DNA of 58,850 bases from an uncultured Clostridia bacterium (GTDB lineage Bacteria > Bacillota > Clostridia > TANB77 > CAG-508). The stretch's first letter is position 1. Every line of letters starts with the position of its first letter. Location: positions 1 to 58,850 of the forward strand of contig CALXKA010000003.1 in assembly GCA_944388765.1 (NCBI GenBank), read 5' to 3'. A program made the translations under genes and the position numbers. Below are positions 1 to 12,049 of the stretch, piece after piece. Under the pieces are notes generated by a model. The model worked only from the letters and a program-made list of their open reading frames with translations, searched no databases and was not told the DNA's origin.

Positions 1-205
1 TTACTAACATTCCTAATAAAAATGAATTTCTTGCTTTTCTTTGCATTGGATTTGTTGCCATAACAAATTCCTCCCTTTATATTAATTTTTCTATATTTTT
101 TTACAAAATATCCATCTCTTATATTTTAACTCAAAGGTATTCTAAAATCAATGAATTTGTATTGTGTTATACAAAATTCATATTTTTGTAATGTTTTTGT
201 AATAT

Positions 206-1075
206 TTAGTGTATTTTTTCTAAAATTGTTGCAACTCCCTCTTGTTCATTACTATCTGTAATATAATTTGCTATTTCTTTTATTGTAGGATTACTTTGTC
301 CCATGGCAACTCCTAATCCTGCTTCTTCTATCATTTTTTTATCATTTATATTATCTCCAATAGCAACTATTTCTTCTTTTTTTATATTTAGTTTTGACAT
401 TAAAAATTCTAATGCATACCATTTATCAACATTTTTGGCTGATATTTCGGTATAATAATATTCTATTGGTATTTCTTCCGTTCCTTGTTGTATAAGTTTT
501 CTTGACATATGAGATACATCTAGAACTTCTATGTTTTCTATTTGATTTAATTTTTTTATAATTGATTGAAAAACACTTTTATTCTCATCACATATAGTTA
601 TTTTTAAAAATTTTTCTTCTTGCATTTTATTTATATATTCATACATATTTTCAACTATATTTATATGTGTTTGTTTATCTTCTGCTTTTTTTAAATTTTC
701 TTTATAGTAATATAAAACATTGTATTTTAAAGCTGTTGAAATTATAGTTTTATCTGTATATACATTATATGATATACTATTTTCTTCACACATCTTTATT
801 ATTTCTAATACTTTTTCTTTATTTAAGTAATTTTCATATAAAATCTCATTTTTTTGGATATCATAAATAAGAGCACCATTTCCTGCAATAAAGTATTTAG
901 TGCTCCCAATTTCGTTTGCAATTGTTTTTATTGAATCAATCGGTCTTCCTGATGCAATTATTACATCAATTCCTTTTTCTATTGTTCTTTTTATTTGTTT
1001 TTTTGTGTTTTCAGTAACTACTCCATATCCATTTAGCATTGTTCCATCTAAATCTATCGCTATTAATTTATACAT
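206..1075 (-). CDS. Cof-type HAD-IIB family phosphatase
   Basis: 289-aa ORF. N-terminal 'IAIDLDGTML' (DxD nucleophile motif) and C-terminal 'GDNINDKKMIEEAG' HAD motif IV. The length and cap region are typical of Cof/YidA-like enzymes. Confidence 0.8.
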   Translation of the reverse strand: MYKLIAIDLDGTMLNGYGVVTENTKKQIKRTIEKGIDVIIASGRPIDSIKTIANEIGSTKYFIAGNGALIYDIQKNEILYENYLNKEKVLEIIKMCEENSISYNVYTDKTIISTALKYNVLYYYKENLKKAEDKQTHINIVENMYEYINKMQEEKFLKITICDENKSVFQSIIKKLNQIENIEVLDVSHMSRKLIQQGTEEIPIEYYYTEISAKNVDKWYALEFLMSKLNIKKEEIVAIGDNINDKKMIEEAGLGVAMGQSNPTIKEIANYITDSNEQEGVATILEKIH

Positions 1076-1272
1076 ATTATTTCCAACTCCTTATTTCTTT
1101 TGTTTTACATTTTGCTTTTTTATTATACTTTTTTTTACATTAAATTGCAATATAGTTATTTTCATTTTTTGGTAAAAATTTCTTGTTTAATTTTCTTCTT
1201 TTCTACACATTATAGTATTAGAAAAAGCAAAAGTTTTTTCTTAAATGTAATATTGCAGGAGGTGAAAAAACA

Positions 1273-1470
1273 ATGGCAAACTCATCAAACAAAAAATTAG
1301 TTCCAGAAGCTATGACTGCTTTAGATAAATTCAAATATGAAGTAGCTAGTGAAGTAGGTGTTAATTTAAAAGACGGATATAATGGAGATCTTTCTTCAAG
1401 AGATGCTGGTAAAATCGGTGGACAAATGGTTAAAAAAATGATAGAACAAGCTGAAAGAAACATGAAATAA
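1273..1470 (+). CDS. small acid-soluble spore protein, alpha/beta type
   Basis: 65-aa ORF with '...KFKYEVASEVGV...' and 'GGQMVKKMIEQAE', the two conserved SASP alpha/beta blocks. A GGAGGTG RBS lies 8 nt upstream and the gene has its own terminator. Confidence 0.85.
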   Translation: MANSSNKKLVPEAMTALDKFKYEVASEVGVNLKDGYNGDLSSRDAGKIGGQMVKKMIEQAERNMK

Positions 1471-1550
1471 TTACTAGAATATTAGTTTTTATATTCAACT
1501 AGGTAGGAAGTTAAATTTTGTTTTTATATATTTATTTTTAAATACATAAA

Positions 1551-1576
1551 GGCAGGATTTGATTTCCTGCCTTTTT
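1551..1576 (+). terminator. intrinsic terminator of the SASP gene
   Basis: GGCAGGA / TCCTGCC 7-bp stem followed by TTTTT. Confidence 0.7.
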
Positions 1577-1835
1577 AGTTTTATTTTATTAGTACATAAT
1601 CTGGGTCATTTTCACATATATCTTTTACTTTTATATCTTCTTCTTTTTAAAATTTTTTATTAAGTTTATTCATGTATATGTTATTACTGTATATTCATTA
1701 AATCTTGCTGTTAATTTCATATTTATAAAATATGCTGTGTTATTAATAATATTTTCACTTTATATTCATTGATAGTTCTTTTTCATATTTTATTTAATAT
1801 TTTTTCCTTTTAGTTTTTGATTTCCTACCTTGATT

Positions 1836-2567
1836 TTAAATTTCATTCAATATTCCAATTAATATATATCTTGCATCTTCATACTCATATGAGCAAGTTG
1901 ATAAAGTTATCAATTTATCTGTTTCTCTTATATTAATATCACTTTTAAAATCAGATTTCTGTAATAATTTTTCTTTTTGTTCTTGATTTATTTCATTTAA
2001 ATTATATATATCATCTTTTAAAGAAGCTGTATATCCTGCAATCAGTTGAATTTCATAGTTTTTTTCTTGTGTAAAATAGTATATTATTTTATGATTATCA
2101 TAATATTCTTGTTTTTTATAATTTTGAAGCGTTCCAAACATTTCATCACTTTTCATATTATGTCCATATATTATTGTATTATCATCTTCTAAATTTGGAT
2201 TATTTCGATAATCCATAAATATACTTCCTGAGGTATTATATTCTCTATTTATAAGCCTATGTAGATAATATTGATTATCTTTTGCTTGTACAACTGGATA
2301 ATTTATTGGTGTGTTTTCAGAATAAATCCAACCAACTATATCTTGGTTTTTTTCTTTTAATGTAGAGAAGTTTACATTTATAGGTGTTTTTTCTTTATCT
2401 CTTGTTAGTTCTGTGTTTGGAACTTCCGTTATTATATCTTCAATCAATTCTTTTTTTAATTTTTTATTAGCATTTTCTTCTTTTATATAGTTATATATAT
2501 TATATGCTGAATATATAAATATTACTAAACAAATCCCAAGAAGTATAATTTTAATTATCTTTTTCAT
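1836..2567 (-). CDS. srtB: class B sortase
   Basis: N-terminal TM anchor, 'IYGHNM' His motif and 'TLSTCS' catalytic Cys motif (class B type). The ATG at 2567 is preceded by AAAGGAAA; the GTG extension to 2600 in the ORF track has no RBS. Confidence 0.8.
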   Translation of the reverse strand: MKKIIKIILLGICLVIFIYSAYNIYNYIKEENANKKLKKELIEDIITEVPNTELTRDKEKTPINVNFSTLKEKNQDIVGWIYSENTPINYPVVQAKDNQYYLHRLINREYNTSGSIFMDYRNNPNLEDDNTIIYGHNMKSDEMFGTLQNYKKQEYYDNHKIIYYFTQEKNYEIQLIAGYTASLKDDIYNLNEINQEQKEKLLQKSDFKSDINIRETDKLITLSTCSYEYEDARYILIGILNEI

Positions 2568-2651
2568 TTTTTTCCTTTCTTTATATGTAAAATGTTGCAC
2601 ATAAATTATCTTTAGTGCAACATAAAAATTTATTTGTTTATTTGTTTTTAG

Positions 2652-3044
2652 TTATTTGCTTTCCTTTTCTAAAATATATTTACCACCCATAGTGCCTTCT
2701 TCTCCATTTAATGTTAATGTGCCATTTTCAAGTTCAAATCTATATGTAGCATCATGGACAGCTTCATTTTCAAAATCTAATATTAATTTATTTTCATTTA
2801 TTGTATAACTATATTCATATTTTGTTTCATTATCATACATAGCACCTTTACCGTTATTATCAAATTCATATTTCACATTTTCATTATATATGAATGTACC
2901 GATTAATGTATTATTTTCAATATTAGTGCTATTATTATCATTATTATTAATGATAGCTATAGTGATTCCTACAGCTATCATTATAATTATTAATAAAATT
3001 ATGATTATTTTGAATGTTTGCTTATGTTTCTTTTTGTTTTGCAT
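2652..3044 (-). CDS. membrane-anchored hypothetical protein
   Basis: 130-aa ORF with an N-terminal basic stretch plus one TM helix ('IIIILLIIIMIAVGITIAII') and an N-rich linker. It sits between the anchor protein and srtB. No recognisable family, and the start is uncertain (it overlaps the 3' end of the upstream gene). Confidence 0.5.
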   Translation of the reverse strand: MQNKKKHKQTFKIIIILLIIIMIAVGITIAIINNNDNNSTNIENNTLIGTFIYNENVKYEFDNNGKGAMYDNETKYEYSYTINENKLILDFENEAVHDATYRFELENGTLTLNGEEGTMGGKYILEKESK

Positions 3045-4759
3045 TTAGCAATACCTATAAAGCAAATTCCTGAAATAACAAGTAAACTAATCCATAATGT
3101 TATATTACTATTGTCTCCTGTTTTAGGTTTTGTTGCATCTGTACTCTCTTTGTTTTCTTCTGCAACTGTTTCTGTTTCATCTGTTACTGCTGTTTCTTCT
3201 TGTTCAACTGTTTTTACAGGGATTACTTCACCTTGTCTTACTACTCGTTGACAATCAAGGCAATATAAATCTCCTGTGTATCCTTCTGTTTCTGTTGTTG
3301 CTTCAACTGCATCTCTAAGTTCTGTATTTGCATGCATCAATGGATTTATTTCTCCATATTCTGCTCCACATACCATACATTTTGCTTTTTCTACACAAGT
3401 AGCTGTTCCACCTTTATGCTCTGCTAATGGAATTACTGTTCCTTTTTGTAATTCTATTCCACAGTCTTTACAATATAAATCTCCTGTGTATCCTTCTTTT
3501 ATACATGTTGCTTCAACTGCATTTCTAGTTTCTGTATTTACATGGTTTGAAGAATCTACTTCCCCATATTCTGCTCCACATACTTCACATTTTGCTTTTT
3601 CTGTGCAAGTAGCTGTTCCACCTTTATGAGCTTCTTGATCTACAATATTTCCACATCCACATTCTTTCCAGTGATCTTCTGTATCTGCTTCCCATTCTCC
3701 ATATTGATGTGCTGCTTTTATTACTAAATCTTCTTCTGTTGCTTCTTGTTTATTTTCATCAAATAGTTTTCCACATACTGAACATTTATAATGAGCATCT
3801 ACTCCATCTTTTAATTCGTCAGCTGTATGTATTGCATCTACTTTTTCTATTAATTCTCCATATGAATGATCTGCAAGTGGTAATTTTGCATTTGTACCAC
3901 TTATAACTTCTCCACAGTCATCACATGTTACGTATTCACCATTTCCTTGTACCATACAAGTAGATGGTACTGCCTCATGTTTTGTTGTATTTTCATGTGC
4001 ACAAACAACTGTTACTTCACAAGTAGCACTATGTGTTTTATCTAGTGTATATACTGTAATTGTTACTGGCTCATTAGTTGTTTTTAAAGCTGTTACGACC
4101 CCATTTACAACACTTACTGTTGATGAGTCTTCACTTTCCCATATTACTCCTTGGTCTGCTGTTGCTGGTTCAACTGTTGCAACTAATGTGTCTGTTTTTC
4201 CTGCATCAAGTGTTAATGTTGTTTTATTAAGTGAAATTCCTGTTGCTGGTACTGATACTTTTATTGTTGAATTCACAGAACTAAACTCACTTGCTGGTAA
4301 CGCATCCATATTTTCATTTGCAAATTCAGTATCTCTTAATTCTACTGTATAATTTCCTGAAGTCGTATTTTCATTAACTGTACATTTGAATGTAGCTACT
4401 GTTATTTCTCCACTTATATTTAATGGATCTAAATCAAGTACTGTTATTCTTCTAGTTTCTTCTGTATAATCTATTTCTGCTATATTTCCCATTTGGTTTA
4501 CAAAGTTAGAATCTAATTTACCTGAGTTTGCTACATATGTTAGACCTTCTGGTATCCCAAGTTCTGTATAAATTGAACATATTGGTCCTGTTGTTTTAAC
4601 TTTGATTGTATAATTGATTGTATCACCTGGATTTACTTCTTGCTTATCTGCTGTTACTGTTAATGTTGCTCTTGGTTCTACTGCTAATACTGGCATGATA
4701 GGCATTAAACTAACAGCTAATGCTAATATAAGTAAAATTGAAATAAGTTTTTTTCTCAT
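3005..4759 (-). CDS. cell-wall-anchored surface protein: cohesin-like module + Big_2 + Cys-rich repeats + KPKTG sorting signal
   Basis: Signal peptide 'MRKKLISILLILALAVSLMPIMPVLA'. Residues ~31-170 follow a cohesin-like pattern ('NPGDTINYTIKV','ITVATFKCTV','GNYTVEL'). Residues ~172-250 are Big_2 ('TLDAGKTDTLVATVEP..VIWESEDSSTVSV'). Many CxxC pairs follow. The C-terminus is 'KPKTG' + hydrophobic helix + 'KCKTKRNISKHSK'. RBS is GAGGGGG. Confidence 0.75.
   Translation of the reverse strand: MRKKLISILLILALAVSLMPIMPVLAVEPRATLTVTADKQEVNPGDTINYTIKVKTTGPICSIYTELGIPEGLTYVANSGKLDSNFVNQMGNIAEIDYTEETRRITVLDLDPLNISGEITVATFKCTVNENTTSGNYTVELRDTEFANENMDALPASEFSSVNSTIKVSVPATGISLNKTTLTLDAGKTDTLVATVEPATADQGVIWESEDSSTVSVVNGVVTALKTTNEPVTITVYTLDKTHSATCEVTVVCAHENTTKHEAVPSTCMVQGNGEYVTCDDCGEVISGTNAKLPLADHSYGELIEKVDAIHTADELKDGVDAHYKCSVCGKLFDENKQEATEEDLVIKAAHQYGEWEADTEDHWKECGCGNIVDQEAHKGGTATCTEKAKCEVCGAEYGEVDSSNHVNTETRNAVEATCIKEGYTGDLYCKDCGIELQKGTVIPLAEHKGGTATCVEKAKCMVCGAEYGEINPLMHANTELRDAVEATTETEGYTGDLYCLDCQRVVRQGEVIPVKTVEQEETAVTDETETVAEENKESTDATKPKTGDNSNITLWISLLVISGICFIGIAKCKTKRNISKHSK
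3215..3628 (-). repeat. two tandem ~210-nt (70-aa) Cys-rich repeat units inside the anchor gene
   Basis: 'HKGGTATC[TV]EKAKC[EM]VCGAEYGE...EGYTGDLYC.DC' occurs twice back to back (aa 378-447 and 448-~515). The DNA repeat is visible as 'tctcctgtgtatccttct' at both ~3270 and ~3480. Confidence 0.8.
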
Positions 4760-4840
4760 TATATTTACCCCCTCTAAATTTTATACAAATATTTTATACT
4801 TATTAGTTTTAAAAGTCAAGTAATTTTGATTTTTTGTTTT

Positions 4841-5033
4841 TTAAAATACTATATTTCTCTTTACATAAGCCAATACTTTTCCATAGTCTACTAGTGTTAC
4901 TTCTCCATCTTGGTTTACATCAGCAGCTTTTAAATTTTGTCCAGTTAATAGTTTTGTTCCTTTGACATGCGCTAATATGTTTCCATAGTCTACTAATGTT
5001 ATTTCTCCATCTCCATTTACATCTCCTAAGATA
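4841..5033 (-). repeat. dockerin-module DNA repeat, copy 1
   Basis: Manual alignment against 6523-6715 gives 12 mismatches in 193 nt. Similarity stops abruptly upstream of the module. Confidence 0.85.
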
Positions 5034-6472
5034 TTTCTTTGTGTATTACTTCCTATTATTTGATTTTCTTCTGTATAGCAATACAATCTATTATTTTCTA
5101 TAAATTTTGCTCCTACTGTTCCAATTTCTGCTTTTAATTCCACATCACGATCAAATGATGTTTCATATATTTCTTTCATATATGAATTTGTTGGAATTGT
5201 AAATGTCGTTATGTTTTCTATTTCAGAAGGTGTTTTAGCTATTCCTGTAACCTTTCCTCCATCTAGTGGATCATTAATTACATAAACTAATCCATCATAT
5301 GAAAAACTTACTACATTTGCTTTTCTTGTTGCTCCATTAAAAACTCCATGAGTAGAATCTAAATAGATCCATTTTCCATCAACAAATGCAGCAGACCATT
5401 CATGTGTTACATTAGATACTGTTGCTGTTGGAATACCACATAAATATAGCATATAATTTGTAAGTATAGTGTATGCTTCACAATTTCCCATCTTTTCATT
5501 AAAAATGCTATAAACTCTATCAATAGTAGCATTTGCTCCATAGTTGTCCATATAATTTATATTATAATATACCCATGTACAAATTTCTCTTGCTTTTTCT
5601 GTTTGTGTTGTACAATTTGCTGTTAATTCTTCTACTTTTGCTTTTATTTCTTGATATGTTTCATTATTTTCATCTTTTTCATCGCAAAAGTATGTACGAT
5701 ATCCATTTAATTTATTTCCTGACCAATTAGTTCTATTATGTGATGTTATTCCTAATGTTTGCAAATTTGATGTAGGTAATACATCTAAATATGATTGATT
5801 TGTAATTGTTGTTGTAGTTGTTTCATTTGAATTTAATTCATTAAATGTTCTTCCATAAACTCTTGCATAATAAAATGCATTTGAATATTTATATCCAGAA
5901 ATTGTAGCTGTATTACTAAATGTTTCTTCTGAATCATCTATTACAGTATATATTGCTTCTATTTTGATATTTTTTAATGATGTACATTCACCAAATGCAT
6001 ATTCATTAATATATGCTATATTTTCTCCCAAATCTGCTTCTTGCAATGAATAACATTGATAAAACGCTCCCATTCCAATTCTTGTTAATTCTTTTGGGAA
6101 TTTTACTGTTTCTAAATTTCCACATTCTGCAAATGCTCTTAAACCAATTGTTGTTACTGTATCTGGCAATGATATTGTCTCTAAGTTTGTGTGCTTTTCA
6201 AAAGCACGATCAGATATAGATGTTATATCTCCATTAAAAATAACATTTTTTACTTGGTCTTTGTAGTCTATCCACGCACTTGTAGAACCACTCATTTTTC
6301 CACTACCAGTGATGGTTAGAGTACCATCACTATCTAATGTCCATGTAATATCATTTCCACAAGTCCCTGATGCAATTTCATTTGTTGCATATACATTTCC
6401 AAAATTTAATATGTTTATTAATAATATAAATATTATTAATGAAATTTGAAGTATTTTCAATATTATTTTCAT
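4841..6472 (-). CDS. secreted LRR (BspA-type) + transglutaminase-like cysteine protease core + C-terminal dockerin protein
   Basis: Signal peptide. Repeats of the form '...AF..C..L..I.LP..V..IG..AF' (LRR_5-like). Transglutaminase-core pattern 'GNCEAYT...HEWSAAFVDGKWIYLDSTHG' (C-H-D). Terminal 'DVNGDGEITLVDY...DVNQDGEVTLVDY' dockerin. Confidence 0.8.
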   Translation of the reverse strand: MKIILKILQISLIIFILLINILNFGNVYATNEIASGTCGNDITWTLDSDGTLTITGSGKMSGSTSAWIDYKDQVKNVIFNGDITSISDRAFEKHTNLETISLPDTVTTIGLRAFAECGNLETVKFPKELTRIGMGAFYQCYSLQEADLGENIAYINEYAFGECTSLKNIKIEAIYTVIDDSEETFSNTATISGYKYSNAFYYARVYGRTFNELNSNETTTTTITNQSYLDVLPTSNLQTLGITSHNRTNWSGNKLNGYRTYFCDEKDENNETYQEIKAKVEELTANCTTQTEKAREICTWVYYNINYMDNYGANATIDRVYSIFNEKMGNCEAYTILTNYMLYLCGIPTATVSNVTHEWSAAFVDGKWIYLDSTHGVFNGATRKANVVSFSYDGLVYVINDPLDGGKVTGIAKTPSEIENITTFTIPTNSYMKEIYETSFDRDVELKAEIGTVGAKFIENNRLYCYTEENQIIGSNTQRNILGDVNGDGEITLVDYGNILAHVKGTKLLTGQNLKAADVNQDGEVTLVDYGKVLAYVKRNIVF

Positions 6473-6522
6473 TTTTTAGATTATTCCTTTCTTAGATATA
6501 TCTTTATTTAAGTTTTTATTAA

Positions 6523-6715
6523 TTAAAACTGTATATTCCTTTTTACATAGGCCAATACTTTTCCATAGTCTACTAGTGTCACTTCTCCATCTAGGTTTAC
6601 ATCAGCAGCTTTTAAATTTTGTCCAGTTAATAGTTTTGTTCCTTTAACATGTGCTAATATATTTCCATAATCTACTAATGTTATTTCTCCATCTCCATTT
6701 ACATCTCCTAAGATA
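6523..6715 (-). repeat. dockerin-module DNA repeat, copy 2
   Basis: See copy 1 at 4841-5033. Confidence 0.85.
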
Positions 6716-9219
6716 TAATCAACAACATTTATAGTAGCTGTAGTTTTTAGTCCATCAACTTCTGCTGTAATTGTTGTTAATCCTTTTGTTTTTGCTGTTA
6801 TAGTTCCATCATTACTTATTGTTGCAACATTTGTATTACTGCTACTCCATTTAATTTCTCCATCTGGCTGCGCTCCTTCAGGTGTCATTTTTAATTCTAG
6901 TTTTTTGGTGTCTCCTATTCTTATAGATGCTGTATCTAAAGATATTCCTGTTAATACTTTATCTAGTGAAAAGAAATTAATAGGATATTTTATTACATAA
7001 GTATTTCCATAATTATCTGCTAACCCATGTACTTCAACTTCAACTGATTTTCCATTTTGAATTGAATAATTTCCATCAGTTAAATAATTTTTTAATTCAT
7101 CTGGAATATCAAAAAAATATGTTCTATATATGTTATCATAGTACAAGCTAAAATCTTCATTTGCAGATGAATATTCTTTTCCATTTGCTTTTAATACAAT
7201 GTATTTTGGTGTTTCCACAAAATATCCTTTATTTGTTAATGTTACAGACCACATTGCATTATAATTAATTGATTCAACTGGGAAGTTTCCTGGTGATGGC
7301 CATGCATAATATCCTTCATTATTATTTCTTTCTCCATCTCTAAATACATTTACTACACCATATCTACTTGCAAATCCATATGAAGCTGATGTTGCTTTTG
7401 GATCAAGTAAACTTAATCTATGGCCAACATCTTTATACATATTTGATGTGTCATCTATATATCCTTTTATTGAATATGCCATTAAAGTACCTTGACTTAT
7501 ATTTGCTGAATATCCAATTCCTGCACTAGTTGCAGAATATCCTTGTTTATAGAATTCTTCATCCATATCACTAGGTCTTGAAGGATAATGCGTTAATATA
7601 TTTCTTGCCGCTAATAATACGGCTCCTTTTTGAGAATAATCCATATATTGATCATTTTGCGTAATATTGTCTAGTCCCGCAATCCATCTAAAATAATTTA
7701 TTTGATTAAGTGTATCTGTTTTTACTTGTGGTAATAGTGATCCTGCTGTGTATGGTGCACTTATAGATGGCGTTTGATCATAAAGGTTAGATGTCGTATT
7801 TACTATACTTAATTTATCATATTTATTTTTTATTTGTAATTTTGTATGTGTTAATGCCACATGATCAGTTATTTCTATATTTTGTGTTACATTGTCATAA
7901 TCTGATAAATTTACTGTTAATGCATAAAATTCTCCATTTTTTAGATATTCTATTAAGATATCATTACCATTTTTATATACTCCTGTAATTCGTTTATCTT
8001 CTCCTATTGATAAATATTTCTCTATTTCATTTGTATGCCAATTATAAATATGTAAAATTCCTTGCACTCCTCCTACATACGCATATGTATCATCATGTGA
8101 TGTTATACTTGCAATATTTGAATAAGAACCATCTATGTCAATTGATCCTTTTATTGTATATGAAACCCCTGACTCAGTATTTGCGTTATAATTTATTTCA
8201 TAAAATTCTCCATATTGGTCATATGCATGTGTTTGTGAATCATCTAAAAATGTCCATAACATTCCTCCATATTCTCTCATTGTATATATCTCATTATTTA
8301 CAAATTTACCATTATCGATTTTTATAATACAATCATTCCACCATGATGGTATACCTCCTTGATTAATACCTAATGCACAAAAAATAACTGTATTTTGTTT
8401 ATTAGTACCAATTAAGTCGATTGCATTACAACCATTAACATATATACCACTTTTTGTATAGCTATCAATTGGATTTCCATCTTTTGTATATGATAATATT
8501 GTTAATTCTTCTTCAGTACTTCCTGCTGTTAGAAGATATATATTGTGATTAGAATCTATGCAAAATTCACCTTCAAATTGATCATATGTTATTGGAAATG
8601 TTTGATCATAGCAAATAGTTTCTGTTTCAGTGTCATATCCTACAATTCTTAATTCATCATATTCTCTCGTAGAATATAATGCATGATAGATTACTTTGTC
8701 TTGAACATAATATCCTCTTACTGATTCTACATCAAAATTATTCCAATTACTAAATATATCTGTATATTCTCCTGTTTCAAAACAATATCTTTTTATACGT
8801 ACAAAATTTAACCCATTTTCTCTTGAGTATGTATAATTTTTTCCATCTCTATTTACATATACTTTTGTAGTTACATCTTTACCATCTATTAATGTCCCTT
8901 CGTATGAGTCTAAACTATATGTACTAATTGCTGCTCTCGATTTTAAATTTGTATTTTGAATTTCTAAATTTTCTTCAGATAATTTTCCAATGTCTAAATC
9001 ATTTGAATCTAAGTTTTCTTGTTCTGCATTAGTATTTTGAATTTTCTTTTCCTCTATATTGTTATTTGTTTCTTCATTTTGTCTTTCTTGTCCATTTACT
9101 ATACTTAACTCATTTGTCGCTTCTTCTTGTGTTTCTTCTGTTGCAAAAACATTAAATGAAATGTTGAATATTAAAGAAAAAATAATAATAGAAGATAAAA
9201 CTTTTAATTTTTTACCCAT
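6523..9219 (-). CDS. large secreted protein with CAP/SCP-like domain, Big_2 domain and C-terminal dockerin
   Basis: Signal peptide. CAP-like block 'YFRWIAGL...GHRLSLLDPKATSASYGFA'. Big_2 'ISLDTASIRIGDTKKLELKMTPEG..IKWSSSNTNVATIS'. Dockerin 'DVNGDGEITLVDY...DVNLDGEVTLVDY'. The start is set at the second ATG (9219), which has a GGGGA RBS and fits the promoter position. Confidence 0.8.
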   Translation of the reverse strand: MGKKLKVLSSIIIFSLIFNISFNVFATEETQEEATNELSIVNGQERQNEETNNNIEEKKIQNTNAEQENLDSNDLDIGKLSEENLEIQNTNLKSRAAISTYSLDSYEGTLIDGKDVTTKVYVNRDGKNYTYSRENGLNFVRIKRYCFETGEYTDIFSNWNNFDVESVRGYYVQDKVIYHALYSTREYDELRIVGYDTETETICYDQTFPITYDQFEGEFCIDSNHNIYLLTAGSTEEELTILSYTKDGNPIDSYTKSGIYVNGCNAIDLIGTNKQNTVIFCALGINQGGIPSWWNDCIIKIDNGKFVNNEIYTMREYGGMLWTFLDDSQTHAYDQYGEFYEINYNANTESGVSYTIKGSIDIDGSYSNIASITSHDDTYAYVGGVQGILHIYNWHTNEIEKYLSIGEDKRITGVYKNGNDILIEYLKNGEFYALTVNLSDYDNVTQNIEITDHVALTHTKLQIKNKYDKLSIVNTTSNLYDQTPSISAPYTAGSLLPQVKTDTLNQINYFRWIAGLDNITQNDQYMDYSQKGAVLLAARNILTHYPSRPSDMDEEFYKQGYSATSAGIGYSANISQGTLMAYSIKGYIDDTSNMYKDVGHRLSLLDPKATSASYGFASRYGVVNVFRDGERNNNEGYYAWPSPGNFPVESINYNAMWSVTLTNKGYFVETPKYIVLKANGKEYSSANEDFSLYYDNIYRTYFFDIPDELKNYLTDGNYSIQNGKSVEVEVHGLADNYGNTYVIKYPINFFSLDKVLTGISLDTASIRIGDTKKLELKMTPEGAQPDGEIKWSSSNTNVATISNDGTITAKTKGLTTITAEVDGLKTTATINVVDYILGDVNGDGEITLVDYGNILAHVKGTKLLTGQNLKAADVNLDGEVTLVDYGKVLAYVKRNIQF

Positions 9220-9245
9220 ATAAAATTCCCCTTTCATTTTTTCAT

Positions 9246-9286
9246 ATTATATCAGATTATTTTTTCTTTGTGAATACTTTGTGAAT
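9246..9286 (-). promoter_or_regulatory. sigma-A-type promoter of the dockerin operon with tandem direct-repeat operator
   Basis: On the minus strand: TTCACA (9269-9274), 17-nt spacer, TGaTATAAT (-10 at 9246-9251). ATTCACAAAG occurs twice with 11-nt spacing (9266-9275 and 9277-9286) and overlaps the -35. Confidence 0.55.
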
Positions 9287-9352
9287 TTTTTATTTTTGCT
9301 GCCAGTATTGCTTAGAATTTTATGTTTTCAATTATTTTTAACAAACAGTCCT

Positions 9353-9408
9353 AGAAAAAAGCACACCATAAAATGCCAATTTTTTATGCATGACATTTTA
9401 TAGTGTAC
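9353..9408 (-). terminator. intrinsic terminator after hpf
   Basis: 15-nt arms GTACACTATAAAATG / CATTTTATGGTGTGC with one mismatch, followed by TTTTTT on the minus strand. Confidence 0.65.
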
Positions 9409-9440
9409 TTCAAAATAAAATTATTCCTAATTATCTTTAT

Positions 9441-9968
9441 TTATGCTTCTGGTTCTACTAATCCATAGTTTTTCCCATCTTTTAATTTATGTACAACATT
9501 TACTTTTCCTGTTTCAACATTTATAAATGTTAGGAAATTATGTGATGGTTTTTCTTTTAATTTTAAAACAGCATCTTCTGGTAACATTGGTTTGATTTCA
9601 TAATATGATGTTTTTATTATTTCATCAGTTATTTCTGATATTTTGTCATCTGTTGTTTCCATTGTTTTTATTGATGCATCTCTCATCATTTTTTCTTTCT
9701 TTGTTTTTGCTTTTCTAATTTGCCCTTCTAATATATCAATATCTTTATCAATTGATGCATACATATCTTTATCTTCTGTTACTGCTCTATACTTTTCTCC
9801 TGCTGCTGTTACATATATTTCTGCTATTTGCTCGTTTTTTTCTGTTCTTAGTGTAACTTCTGCTTCTGCATCTTCAAAATATTTATCTATTCTGTCTAAT
9901 TTTCTTTCTACGTAATCATTTATTGCATCAGTTATCTTTAGTTCCTTCCCTGTTATTTTTATTTTCAT
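9441..9968 (-). CDS. hpf: ribosome hibernation promoting factor (long form)
   Basis: 'MKIKITGKELKITDAINDYVERKLDRIDKYF' is a typical HPF/YfiA N-terminus, with a C-terminal dimerisation domain. GGGAG RBS precedes the ATG at 9968. The 42-codon upstream extension in the ORF track is rejected. Confidence 0.85.
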   Translation of the reverse strand: MKIKITGKELKITDAINDYVERKLDRIDKYFEDAEAEVTLRTEKNEQIAEIYVTAAGEKYRAVTEDKDMYASIDKDIDILEGQIRKAKTKKEKMMRDASIKTMETTDDKISEITDEIIKTSYYEIKPMLPEDAVLKLKEKPSHNFLTFINVETGKVNVVHKLKDGKNYGLVEPEA

Positions 9969-10050
9969 AAAAATCGCTCCCTTCTCTTCTTTTATGTTTG
10001 TTTTTAGTATATCTTTATTATATATGTTATTTCTTCTTTTTTCAAGTTTT

Positions 10051-10779
10051 TTAAAATAATTCTTCCATTTTATACTCTTTTTCCATTTTTTCATTAAAAT
10101 ATAATTTTGATATAAGTTTAAATTCTTCTAATGATTCGTCTTTAATTGTAAAAGAAAATAGTTTTTTAGAAGGTGCTGTTATTGTGTATTTTATTGCATT
10201 TAATGTACTTTCAGTCATACTAATTGAAGATTTATCTTGTTTTGAACAAGCTTCACATTTTAGTCCATTATCTCTTAGACTAAAATAGTGTAAATTCTCT
10301 TTTTGCTTACAATTAATGCAGCTTTCAGTTTTTGGTCTAAATCCTAAGATGCTTGCTAGCCTTAATTTAAATATACTTAATACTAATTCTAAATCTTTAT
10401 CTATTTCTGATATTACGTATAAAGTATTTAAAAGTAGTTGTAAAATATTAAAACAATTTTGATTTTCATGTGTCACATCTTTTATTATCTTATTAATATG
10501 TACTGCATATTTTAATTTATCTAAATCTGTTCTTATGTTATAAAATACTTCTATTGGTTCTACCGAGTTTATATGATATGTATTTGTTCCTTTATACATT
10601 AAATATTCTCCAAAGCAAAACATTTGTGTACCTGCTAAAAGAGCACTTCTTGGTCTTCGTGCTCCCTTAGCTACACATGATATTTTTCCTACATTTGGTG
10701 TTAGTATTGTTAACATTTTGTCAAAATCGCCCATATTATTTTCTGATAATACTATTCCACTTATTTTTGTACTTGCCAT
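10051..10779 (-). CDS. recO: DNA repair protein RecO
   Basis: 242 aa. OB-fold N-terminus '...GIVL...GDFDKMLTILT...GKISCVAKGARR' and a Cys4 zinc motif 'CINC...CEAC'. Conserved position downstream of era. Confidence 0.85.
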   Translation of the reverse strand: MASTKISGIVLSENNMGDFDKMLTILTPNVGKISCVAKGARRPRSALLAGTQMFCFGEYLMYKGTNTYHINSVEPIEVFYNIRTDLDKLKYAVHINKIIKDVTHENQNCFNILQLLLNTLYVISEIDKDLELVLSIFKLRLASILGFRPKTESCINCKQKENLHYFSLRDNGLKCEACSKQDKSSISMTESTLNAIKYTITAPSKKLFSFTIKDESLEEFKLISKLYFNEKMEKEYKMEELF

Positions 10780-10816
10780 TTATTTTGTTTCACCTTTTCT
10801 TTTCTAGCTTCTATTT

Positions 10817-10984
10817 TTAATTTTCTTGATTATCTTTATTTATATTGTTTTTTAATTCTTCTTGTAACAAATTAATATTTTGTTCTTGTATTCCTTTTTC
10901 TACTTCTTCAATTTGTTTTAGTTCTAAATATGTGTTAATATCTCCTGTGTTTTTAAATGCTTGCCACGCCATTTTTTTAATCAT
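10817..10984 (-). CDS. YqzL-family small protein (below the ORF-track length cutoff)
   Basis: 55-codon ORF 'MIKKMAWQAFKNTGDINTYLELKQIEE...'. The W..F..TG.I..YL..K pattern and the position between era and recO match the B. subtilis era-yqzL-recO arrangement. The start could instead be the internal ATG at 10972. Confidence 0.6.
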   Translation of the reverse strand: MIKKMAWQAFKNTGDINTYLELKQIEEVEKGIQEQNINLLQEELKNNINKDNQEN

Positions 10985-11053
10985 GCTATCACTTCCTTTT
11001 TAAAGTTTTACCTTTAATTTTATCTTTTGCATTTTTTTTAATTTTATTCTTTA

Positions 11054-11959
11054 TTACTTATTTAATTTAAATTTATTTACAATATTATCATTTTCTTGCC
11101 AATCTTCTTTTACTTTTACCCATGTTTTTAAATTCACTTTAACTCCAAAGTTTTGTTCCATATCTATTCGTGCCATTCTTCCTATCTTCTTTAACATTTC
11201 TCCGTTTTTACCTATAATTATACCTTTATGTGAGTTTCTCAAACAATATATTGTTGCTTCTATATCATAGATATCTTCATTATTTTTATTTTTTCTTTGT
11301 TTCATTTTTTCAACTTCTACATATATTCCATGAGGCACTTCATCTTGTAATAACTTTAAGGCTTTTTCTCTAATTGTTTCTTCTGCGAGTTGTCTTAAAG
11401 TTTGATCTGTATATTCTTCTATATCATAGTATGCAGGTCCTTCATTTAAGTTCTTTTCTATTTCATCTAATATTATTTCTCTATATTTAATGTTTATTGC
11501 AGAAATTGGTATTACTACTTCAAAATCATATTCTTTTCTATATAAATCAATTAGGCTTAGTAATTTTTCTCTTTTTACTAAATCTATTTTATTAATTATT
11601 AGTATTGTTTTTCTTTTTGCTTCTTTTATTTTTTCTAAAATTCTCCTATCTCCTCTTCCAATTTCGTCACTTGTTGCTTCTATCAAAAATAATATAATAT
11701 CACTGTCAGCAATACTCCCAAATGATGTTTCTATCATTGTTTCATTTAATTTTGTTTTTGGCTTATGAATACCTGGTGTGTCTGTAAATATTATTTGCGA
11801 ATTTTCTCTATTTACTATTCCTTTTATTGCTGTTCTAGTTGTTTGCACTTTATTTGCTATTGCAGCTACTTTTTCTCCTACTAACAGATTTAGTAATGTC
11901 GATTTTCCTACATTTGTTCTTCCTATTAATGTTACAAACCCTGATTTAAATTTTGTCAT
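11054..11959 (-). CDS. era: GTPase Era
   Basis: 'KSGFVTLIGRTNVGKSTLLN' G1 motif, 'DTPG' G3, 'NKID' G4, and a C-terminal KH domain. The ATG at 11959 has an AGGAA RBS; the ATG at 11977 has none. Confidence 0.9.
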   Translation of the reverse strand: MTKFKSGFVTLIGRTNVGKSTLLNLLVGEKVAAIANKVQTTRTAIKGIVNRENSQIIFTDTPGIHKPKTKLNETMIETSFGSIADSDIILFLIEATSDEIGRGDRRILEKIKEAKRKTILIINKIDLVKREKLLSLIDLYRKEYDFEVVIPISAINIKYREIILDEIEKNLNEGPAYYDIEEYTDQTLRQLAEETIREKALKLLQDEVPHGIYVEVEKMKQRKNKNNEDIYDIEATIYCLRNSHKGIIIGKNGEMLKKIGRMARIDMEQNFGVKVNLKTWVKVKEDWQENDNIVNKFKLNK

Positions 11960-12049
11960 ATATTTGTTTCCTTTCATTTTTACTTTACTTTTATATTATA
12001 CACTATTTTTTTGCTAAATTTGTAGAATTAGCGAAAATTATTTAAATTT

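Follow-up and report, generated by a model that had tools for sequence, protein, structure and literature searches.

The question raised by the locus described here is whether a protein with a single cohesin-like head, two proteins that end in dockerins and a class B sortase, encoded side by side, make up a surface-display system that operates without carbohydrate-active enzymes (CAZymes). The locus lies in a 58,850 nt stretch of DNA (positions 1–58,850 of contig CALXKA010000003.1, assembly GCA_944388765.1; hereafter the window) from an uncultured Clostridia bacterium, and its five genes all run along the minus strand (9219-1836), bounded by one promoter-like and one terminator-like site. Read 5' to 3', these genes specify two dockerin proteins (cargo 1 and cargo 2), the cohesin-like anchor, a DUF5640 protein and the class B sortase (SrtB), and each of the five products begins with either a signal peptide or a membrane anchor. 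Taken together, the results make it likely that this cassette is a self-contained, non-CAZyme cohesin-dockerin surface-display operon. Feature coordinates are collected in Table 1, and related loci and proteins are cited by our own numbers (L and P, respectively).

The original prediction, made from the sequence alone, proposed a cohesin-like fold for residues ~31-170 of the anchor. An AlphaFold2 model of this head is of high confidence (predicted local distance difference test (pLDDT) 96.9, predicted template modelling (TM) score 0.90) and displays the nine-stranded, flattened beta-sandwich (jelly-roll) of solved cohesins. When the model was searched against the PDB with Foldseek, nearly all of the top 50 matches were cohesins (best E 3.5e-10, TM 0.6–0.73), the best being 5n5p (ScaB Coh5 of Ruminococcus flavefaciens), 6kgf (CohA2 of Clostridium acetobutylicum), 2vn5 and 2xdh; cohesins of Clostridium cellulolyticum and Clostridium thermocellum and the non-cellulosomal modules of Archaeoglobus fulgidus and Clostridium perfringens are among the matches. 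Because of this model and its matches, the fold of the head is accepted as cohesin-like. Sequence searches gave a fainter signal. The Pfam scan of the full-length anchor found no cohesin match and placed DUF11 below its cut-off (20.6 vs 24.6 bits), and when anchor residues 1-252 were used as a single query against the PDB, only the Big_2 part was matched and no cohesin came up. A profile built from 26 homologous domains recovered PDB cohesins weakly, and 14 of the 26 matched the cohesin family PF00963 at E <= 0.1 (best 2.4e-7). Four homologous anchors (P0009, P0013, P0016 and P0027; 46–53% overall identity) carry a cohesin above the Pfam cut-off at the equivalent position, and hhalign aligned the head type of the window with these Pfam-positive heads at 94.5% probability (E 7.8e-8). 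The cohesin-like beta-sandwich is thus, as modelled, real at the level of fold and weakly detectable by sequence, so that the predicted fold was borne out but the expected Pfam match fell short of its threshold.

An exhaustive profile search with the head retrieved 5,495 representative proteins. Multi-copy, scaffoldin-like relatives include P0124, with five cohesin copies (82 bits on PF00963) and a dockerin, and P0133, with five cohesin copies, LRR_5 and dockerins; P0138 has two copies of the same subtype plus a dockerin. Larger assemblies built from this cohesin subtype therefore exist elsewhere.

Both genes upstream of the anchor were predicted to end in canonical two-segment dockerins, and the Pfam scan agrees (Dockerin_1, 38.1 bits for cargo 1 and 39.9 bits for cargo 2; cut-off 22.9). 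Each dockerin has the two EF-hand-like calcium-loop segments of PF00404, is type-I-like, and carries two DVNxDGExTLVD loops (DVNGDGEITLVD and DVN[LQ]DGEVTLVD). They are the only two dockerins in the window, which has a single sorting signal of the type found on the anchor. At E <= 0.1, Pfam places no glycoside hydrolase (GH) or carbohydrate-binding module (CBM) family in cargo 1, cargo 2 or the anchor. The domain scan, which covered the cassette, turned up no GH, CBM or scaffoldin gene there, and the genes of related cassettes have no reported GH or CBM family in their Pfam calls. The absence of such modules from the cargo was anticipated by the original prediction; its term 'non-cellulolytic' holds for the cassette only, the whole organism being beyond its scope.

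In cargo 2, the predicted combination of BspA-type leucine-rich repeats (LRR) and a transglutaminase-like core was recovered (LRR_5, 97.2 bits; Transglut_core, 46.2 bits, cut-off 23), and its PDB sequence matches include BspA-like LRR proteins. The core (PF01841) contains GNC331, TH357 and LD372 in the expected order, giving an intact Cys331/His357/Asp372 pattern, a putative triad assigned by motif reading. For cargo 1, the predicted Big_2 domain is clear (38.6 bits) but the CAP domain (PF00188) is marginal, scoring 19.0 bits in the full-length protein and 21.5 bits when residues 495-765 were scanned alone (cut-off 21.1). A CAP match was found in two of six regions homologous to cargo 1 (best E 4.8e-6). 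Its N-terminal region of ~400 residues is without a Pfam or PDB sequence match, and is conserved in L002 (E 3e-133) and L017 (E 4e-85), in both cases within dockerin-bearing cargo. The automatic open reading frame (ORF) for cargo 1 spans 9237-6523, and a ribosome-binding site (AAAGGGG, in AAAGGGGAA) sits seven bases 5' of an ATG at 9219; because of this site, and because near-identical contigs have 898-aa gene calls, the start was placed at 9219.

If the head and the dockerins are partners, their sequences should have changed together, and this is what comparison among loci suggests. Dockerins within a locus are 84–97% identical despite the unrelated bodies of the cargo proteins, and average 31% identity between loci. 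At least four dockerin types co-vary with the cohesins: L004, L005 and L009 combine a Pfam-type cohesin with a 'TPYDAxLINV' dockerin, L011 and L017 a different cohesin with an 'AQDAVxILKYVAHNI' dockerin, and the window together with L001 represents a third cohesin/dockerin type. In Mantel tests, cohesin and dockerin identities were correlated across 17 loci (Spearman r = 0.58, p = 2e-4), after removal of a near-duplicate locus (r = 0.60), and with one locus per cluster (13 loci; r = 0.57, p = 4e-4). No correlation was seen between the identity of either module and that of the Big_2 or stalk region of the same anchor (r -0.13 to 0.15). Between the species and a sister species, identity is among the highest in the cohesin (84%), the dockerins (84–91%) and the sorting signal (85%), the whole proteins being 71–80% identical. 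This is the pattern that a private cohesin-dockerin pair predicts, and the co-variation lends indirect support to the predicted calcium-dependent binding between the two modules.

Several observations weigh against a cohesin-dockerin operon. The promoter and terminator calls are consensus matches only. The isolated head scores 19.2 bits against PF00963 (E 0.0014; profile positions 2-128 of 139), below the cut-off of 24.1, and reaches 25.5 bits with DUF11, above the cut-off of 24.6. Its first ~50 residues resemble DUF11 repeats, and the fold matches include integrin domains and the CLIPPER adhesin domain 9ifr (rank 14). The controls in the Mantel tests (Big_2 and stalk) are weak, having a narrow range of identity, and the loci share ancestry and are not phylogenetically independent. 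Finally, the dataset for this genome is the 58.8 kb window, and other cohesins, dockerins, sortases or CAZymes may be encoded elsewhere. One rival reading is that the head is an adhesin domain with the shape of a cohesin, of the DUF11, CARDB or CLIPPER kind, and binds no dockerin; the dockerin proteins would then dock on a scaffoldin encoded elsewhere, or bind in some other manner, and the neighbourhood would reflect only co-regulation of surface proteins. The sub-threshold PF00963 score, the DUF11 and TIGR01451 scores over the first strands (at or above cut-off) and the CLIPPER match speak for such a domain, as do giant DUF11-repeat proteins that the profile search reached at positions ~6-60 of the head profile. 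The match to these proteins is confined to the first ~50 positions, which accounts for the DUF11 signal. The cohesin-dominated fold search, the hhalign result, the 82-bit PF00963 score among multi-copy relatives, the homogenised dockerins within each cassette, and a cohesin type that co-varies with the neighbouring dockerin type independently of the stalk all argue against an adhesin domain. A DUF11/CARDB-type identity for the head was demoted to a minor rival by the fold search, hhalign and the co-variation, and we consider an adhesin head of this kind quite unlikely. As a separate observation, anchor residues ~31-85 (TLTVTADKxxVxPGDxIxYTV...) match both TIGR01451 and DUF11 repeats (up to ~40 stretches per protein), which suggests that this cohesin clade is related in sequence to repeats of the DUF11 type or that the two have a strand motif in common.

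The remainder of the anchor has parts that would hold a cohesin at the cell surface, and the Big_2 domain, Cys-rich region and KPKTG motif with hydrophobic helix and basic tail that were originally proposed are upheld, the Big_2 domain and the signal scoring above their cut-offs. Big_2 occupies residues 172-248 (27.6 bits; cut-off 22.8) and is followed by the Cys-rich stalk, in which no Pfam model reached its cut-off. The stalk has Cys, His, Gly and Tyr positions that are invariant across homologues, and the repeating module is ~70 aa long with the pattern H-x-GG-x-ATC-xx-KA-x-C-xx-C-xx-EYG ... H-x-NTE ... ATC-xx-EGYTGD-x-YC-x-DC; it is probably metal-binding or disulfide-stabilised. At least 586 stalk-related stretches were found in species-representative genomes, mostly of gut Clostridia, and these stretches are frequently joined to modules of the LRR, Big_2, cohesin or dockerin type. 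The AlphaFold2 model of the full-length anchor (pLDDT 79.9) is most confident for the cohesin and Big_2 domains (above 90), less so for the beta-hairpins of the stalk (75–88), and disordered in the linker at residues 519-550 (below 50), which is followed by a helix at 553-570. A Foldseek search with this model gave no informative match for the stalk. The modelled layout is the one to be expected if the stalk spans the wall and keeps a binding head clear of the cell.

At the C-terminus, NCBIfam TIGR03063 (srtB_target) matches residues 545-568 with 22.4 bits (cut-off 18.15), and predicts an SrtB signal. Within the motif KPKTGD, P545 (P3 Pro), T547 (P1 Thr) and D549 (P2' Asp) are invariant in an alignment of 16 anchor sequences. 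The C-termini of 130 distinct stalk proteins give the consensus [S/K/N]-P-[Q/K]-T-G-D-N, where Pro and Thr were preset by the search pattern and where G at P1' (89/130) and D at P2' (93/130) predominate. The signal of Bacillus anthracis IsdC is DNPKTGDE, with the P2' Asp needed for full SrtB activity, while substrates of Clostridioides difficile SrtB include PVPPKTGDS and are of the (S/P)PxTG type (PMC11987632, PMC4155245). The signal of the anchor matches these characterised substrates in sequence. It had been labelled as (S/P)PxTG; the assignment to the SrtB class stands, and the strict type does not, as KPKTG differs from NPKTG at one residue and is nearer to the B. anthracis NPKTG(D) form.

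A class B sortase with a TLSTC motif, two genes downstream of the anchor and on the same strand, was also foreseen, and TIGR03064 identifies it with 203.4 bits (cut-off 153.75). The translation has an intact His/Cys/Arg set and a hydrophobic N-terminus. While the automatic ORF begins at 2600, the most likely start is 2567, in agreement with gene calls on related contigs. Its closest PDB relative is SrtB of B. anthracis (1e-42), followed by the NPQTN-specific enzyme of Staphylococcus aureus and the SrtB enzymes of C. difficile and C. perfringens. Pilus-associated enzymes are known among class B sortases, and the one encoded here might build a pilus-like fibre from the anchor, or from a different substrate, in place of attaching the anchor to peptidoglycan. 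The long, repetitive, Cys-rich stalk would suit a fibre, and a pilus-associated enzyme of Streptococcus pyogenes (3psq) is among the PDB matches (1.4e-26). The nearest solved relatives are nevertheless wall-anchoring enzymes (Isd-type and C. difficile SrtB, 1e-42 to 1e-30), the cassette has a single substrate gene, no Cna-type pilin domain appeared in the Pfam scan, and the sorting signal agrees, down to the P2' Asp, with the consensus for SrtB enzymes that anchor proteins to the wall. Polymerisation is very improbable on this evidence, and attachment of the anchor to the wall is the reading followed below.

Between the anchor and sortase genes lies the gene for the DUF5640 protein, for which no PDB sequence relative or solved structure was found, and a literature search on DUF5640 returned nothing. 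A DUF5640 gene directly follows the stalk gene in every locus that has this tail type and downstream DNA, whether or not a sortase is adjacent (among them L016, L018-L020, L022, L026, L027, L030, L042, L057, L063, L067 and L078). As the constant partner of the stalk, DUF5640 may assist in its folding or export.

The five genes are closely packed, with intergenic gaps of 50, 81 and 51 nt and a 40-nt overlap between the anchor and DUF5640 genes. The promoter-like site is a sigma-70-like pattern immediately 5' of the cargo 1 gene. No minus-strand terminator-like site was found within the five-gene block, the only one being that at 1574-1548, and Rfam detected no riboswitch, leader or other RNA family in positions 1-12000 or in the whole window. 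Consensus sites and gene spacing both fit a single transcription unit. On the downstream side, the cassette is met by a convergent gene for a small acid-soluble spore protein (SASP); the minus-strand ORF called automatically at 1218-1463 is probably the antisense shadow of this gene. Along with the cotJ, yabP and yabQ genes of related contigs, the SASP gene indicates that the host is a spore former.

Table 1. Positions of the cassette genes, their modules and adjacent sites within the window.
Feature	Position	Strand	Description
SASP gene	1273-1470	+	alpha/beta-type small acid-soluble spore protein; converges on cassette
Terminator-like hairpin	1548..1574	-	10-bp stem, bidirectional; common to the cassette and the convergent SASP gene
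Class B sortase	1836..2567	-	243 aa from ATG 2567; TIGR03064; His136, Cys225 (TLSTC), Arg233
DUF5640 protein	2652..3044	-	130 aa; N-terminal membrane anchor and lipocalin-like domain; Pfam DUF5640, 72 bits
Anchor ('mini-scaffoldin')	3005..4759	-	584 aa; signal peptide, cohesin, Big_2, Cys-rich stalk, disordered linker, SrtB sorting signal
Predicted cell-wall sorting signal	3008..3130	-	KPKTGD (544-549), hydrophobic helix LWISLLVISGICFIGIA, basic tail KCKTKRNISKHSK
Cys-rich repeat stalk	3215..4003	-	anchor residues 253-515; 19 Cys, many in CxxC spacing
Divergent cohesin module	4244..4681	-	anchor residues 27-172; AlphaFold2, Foldseek, PF00963 in homologues, hhalign
Cargo 2	4841..6472	-	543 aa; signal peptide, BspA-type LRR_5, transglutaminase-like Cys-protease core, C-terminal dockerin
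Cargo 2 dockerin	4844..5029	-	97% protein and 93% DNA identity to cargo 1 dockerin
Cargo 1	6523..9219	-	898 aa; signal peptide, ~400-aa region, CAP/SCP-like, Big_2, C-terminal dockerin
Cargo 1 dockerin	6526..6711	-	two Ca-binding segments, DVNGDGEITLVD and DVNLDGEVTLVD
Cargo 1 N-terminal region	7756-8949	-	residues ~91-494; ~400 residues
Promoter-like site	9246..9274	-	TTCACA, 17-nt spacer, TG-extended TATAAT; 11/12 matches; consensus scan and sequence reading

The original prediction proposed that conservation of the five-gene block be checked in related genomes, and the block proved to be retained within the species, in a sister species and, as gene order, in more than ten contigs of distant gut Clostridia. 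Contigs from at least four samples of the species have the identical block between the same neighbours, with HPF at one end and SASP plus a HAD hydrolase at the other, as does a sister species, where the anchor is 76% identical to that of the window; a match at 99% identity was found in the uncultured Clostridia metagenome-assembled genome E03__bin191. More distant loci, from the guts of sheep, deer, goat, rabbit, mouse, chicken and human, have different flanks and run from one to five dockerin genes to a cohesin-Big_2-stalk anchor, DUF5640 and a class B sortase. This order is complete in L001-L007, L009 and L010, and is the same in L011, L012 and L017 except that a DUF5640 gene was not detected. 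Another six (L016, L018, L019, L026, L030 and L042) have the anchor and DUF5640 with no adjacent sortase within the fetched DNA. LRR_5, Transglut_core, CAP and Big_2 are the recurrent cargo domains across cassettes.

A second arrangement bears on what the stalk is for. In L013 (8762-11449), L014 (8762-10768) and L023, LRR, transglutaminase, stalk and an SrtB-type signal are fused in one protein that is followed by DUF5640 and SrtB, and seven related proteins (P0007, P0008, P0010, P0014, P0018, P0025 and P0035) have the architecture of LRR_5, transglutaminase core and Cys-rich stalk. Judged by their domain order, the fusion variants would display the cargo covalently, without a cohesin-dockerin joint, and they tie this type of cargo to wall display on this stalk. 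The synteny, the fusions and the cohesin/dockerin co-variation together support the proposal of one wall-anchored cohesin that presents alternative dockerin cargo.

In L002 (6563-18354), and also in L003, a cassette and a large serine recombinase are found between two pieces of cotJC (Mn-catalase), directly after cotJA and cotJB. The cotJC pieces of L002 match Pfam profile positions 1-66 and 113-197, and the recombinase is split between two ORFs, one matching the Resolvase N-terminal domain and the other the Recombinase domain. This cassette consists of a transglutaminase-LRR-dockerin cargo, the anchor, DUF5640, the sortase and a second dockerin cargo. The insert resembles a skin-like mobile element, ~11 kb long, that interrupts a sporulation gene, and if so the display cassette would be horizontally mobile.

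The following mechanism is proposed for the cassette of the window. The operon would be transcribed as one unit and its products exported or inserted in the membrane, the anchor leaving by Sec and being retained by its C-terminal helix. SrtB would cut the anchor after Thr547 (KPKT|GD) and join it to peptidoglycan, whereupon the linker and stalk would project the cohesin past the wall. The secreted cargo proteins would then bind the single cohesin through their calcium-loaded dockerins, one at a time and in competition. Since both halves of each dockerin are alike (LV-D-YG), a dual binding mode is possible. The cell would in this manner display a BspA-type LRR/transglutaminase-like protein and a CAP-domain protein, domains that suggest roles in adhesion (LRR) and in protein modification or proteolysis (transglutaminase-like core, CAP). 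Most plausibly, the cargo proteins are adhesins or enzymes that modify proteins, acting on surfaces of the host, the diet or neighbouring cells. Since every cassette has its own matched cohesin-dockerin type, cargo could be swapped or added without anchoring having to evolve anew.

The same parts could also belong to something larger, with the cassette as a peripheral module of a cellulosome or amylosome and the anchor, like ScaE or Sca2, also binding the dockerins of CAZymes or adaptor scaffoldins encoded elsewhere. ScaE and Sca2 do work in this way, with Sca2 binding the dockerins of amylases, a peptidase and an LRR protein (PMC4611034), and R. flavefaciens, a cellulosome producer, has operons of transglutaminase-dockerin and LRR-dockerin genes (PMC2930009); the multi-cohesin relatives of this subtype point the same way. 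Set against this are the lack of GH, CBM and scaffoldin genes in the cassette as scanned, the lack of GH/CBM calls in related cassettes, and dockerins that are private to each locus. We regard membership of a larger complex as unlikely, and it is compatible with the display mechanism, as it merely lengthens the list of clients.

A wider reading, on which we are evenly divided, is that the window contains one example of a widespread, sometimes mobile, plug-and-play display cassette of gut Clostridia. In it, an SrtB-anchored stalk with its DUF5640 partner and a private cohesin would recruit, by private dockerins, one to five interchangeable cargoes (LRR, transglutaminase-like, CAP), using mutually orthogonal pairs mainly for decoration or adhesion of the commensal surface and not for polysaccharide degradation, and this would be a use, at the level of a whole system, in which neither class B sortases nor cohesin-dockerin modules have been described. 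If the pairing is true, the known clients of class B sortases, so far stand-alone surface proteins, would come to include a non-covalent adaptor, and a compact, operon-encoded cohesin-dockerin system without CAZyme cargo would recur across uncultured gut Clostridia. It would also suggest how these commensals in general present adhesins or protein-modifying enzymes at their surface, give the Cys-rich stalk repeat and DUF5640 a first functional context, and provide a natural set of apparently orthogonal cohesin-dockerin pairs that could be useful for synthetic surface display.

Among known systems, ScaE of R. flavefaciens is a single cohesin with an LPXTG signal that is covalently attached to peptidoglycan and serves as a surface socket for dockerin partners (PMC2930009). 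The anchor resembles it in being secreted, with one cohesin and a C-terminal sorting signal, and R. flavefaciens cohesins are among its best fold matches. ScaE, however, holds a large cellulosome by way of the X-dockerins of ScaB and CttA, whereas the clients here are two co-operonic, non-CAZyme proteins, and the cassette differs further in its KPKTGD motif with a dedicated, co-operonic class B sortase and in the spacer formed by the Cys-rich stalk and Big_2. The Sca2 cohesin of Ruminococcus bromii, which binds dockerins of a peptidase, an LRR protein and amylases and has a predicted sortase signal (PMC4611034), is likewise a cohesin with such a signal in a human gut Firmicute. It belongs to a starch-degrading system, and neither an operon of cohesin, clients and sortase nor an SrtB-type signal, Cys-rich stalk or DUF5640 is described in that work (PMC4611034). 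As for the cargo, R. flavefaciens FD-1 group 4b (ORF01263-01267) has four transglutaminase-like-dockerin genes and one LRR-dockerin gene arranged head-to-tail, with conserved C-terminal regions and dockerins and variable N-termini (PMC2930009). The cassette cargo shows the same pattern of conserved dockerin and variable N-terminus, but the published description of the FD-1 locus names no cohesin, anchor or sortase, and here the anchor and sortase are in the same unit.

The pairing of IsdC with SrtB in S. aureus and B. anthracis, and the SrtB system of C. difficile, are similar in having the sortase gene beside, or in an operon with, that of its substrate, and in an NPxTx or (S/P)PxTG signal with a P2' Asp (PMC11987632, PMC4155245). 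Known substrates of class B sortases are self-acting haem-uptake proteins, adhesins and hydrolases, while the substrate in the cassette would be a non-covalent adaptor. Cohesin-dockerin modules outside plant cell-wall degradation are found in C. perfringens and A. fulgidus, and structures of this kind are among the fold matches of the head (2jh2, 2w1n and 2xdh). In C. perfringens, the toxin and glycosidase cohesin-dockerin complexes link secreted enzymes to one another, and we know of no description of the C. perfringens or A. fulgidus pairs as a sortase-anchored display cassette.

The novelty first proposed for the locus is therefore narrowed, since sortase-anchored, single-cohesin scaffoldins have been published, and the SrtB-coupled arrangement is the part that is retained. 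Literature searches found no description of this cohesin-dockerin-SrtB arrangement: those combining cohesin, dockerin and 'sortase B' gave only reviews and one secretomics analysis, none with this arrangement, and those on non-cellulosomal cohesin-dockerin modules in gut bacteria returned work on cellulosomes and amylosomes. Because ScaE, Sca2 and the FD-1 operon are published, neither the set of cargo proteins nor the principle of display is new. What is specific to the cassette is the class B sortase with its NPxTG-like signal, the joining of clients, socket and sortase in one operon, the Cys-rich stalk with DUF5640, a cassette free of CAZymes, and cohesin-dockerin types that are private to each locus.

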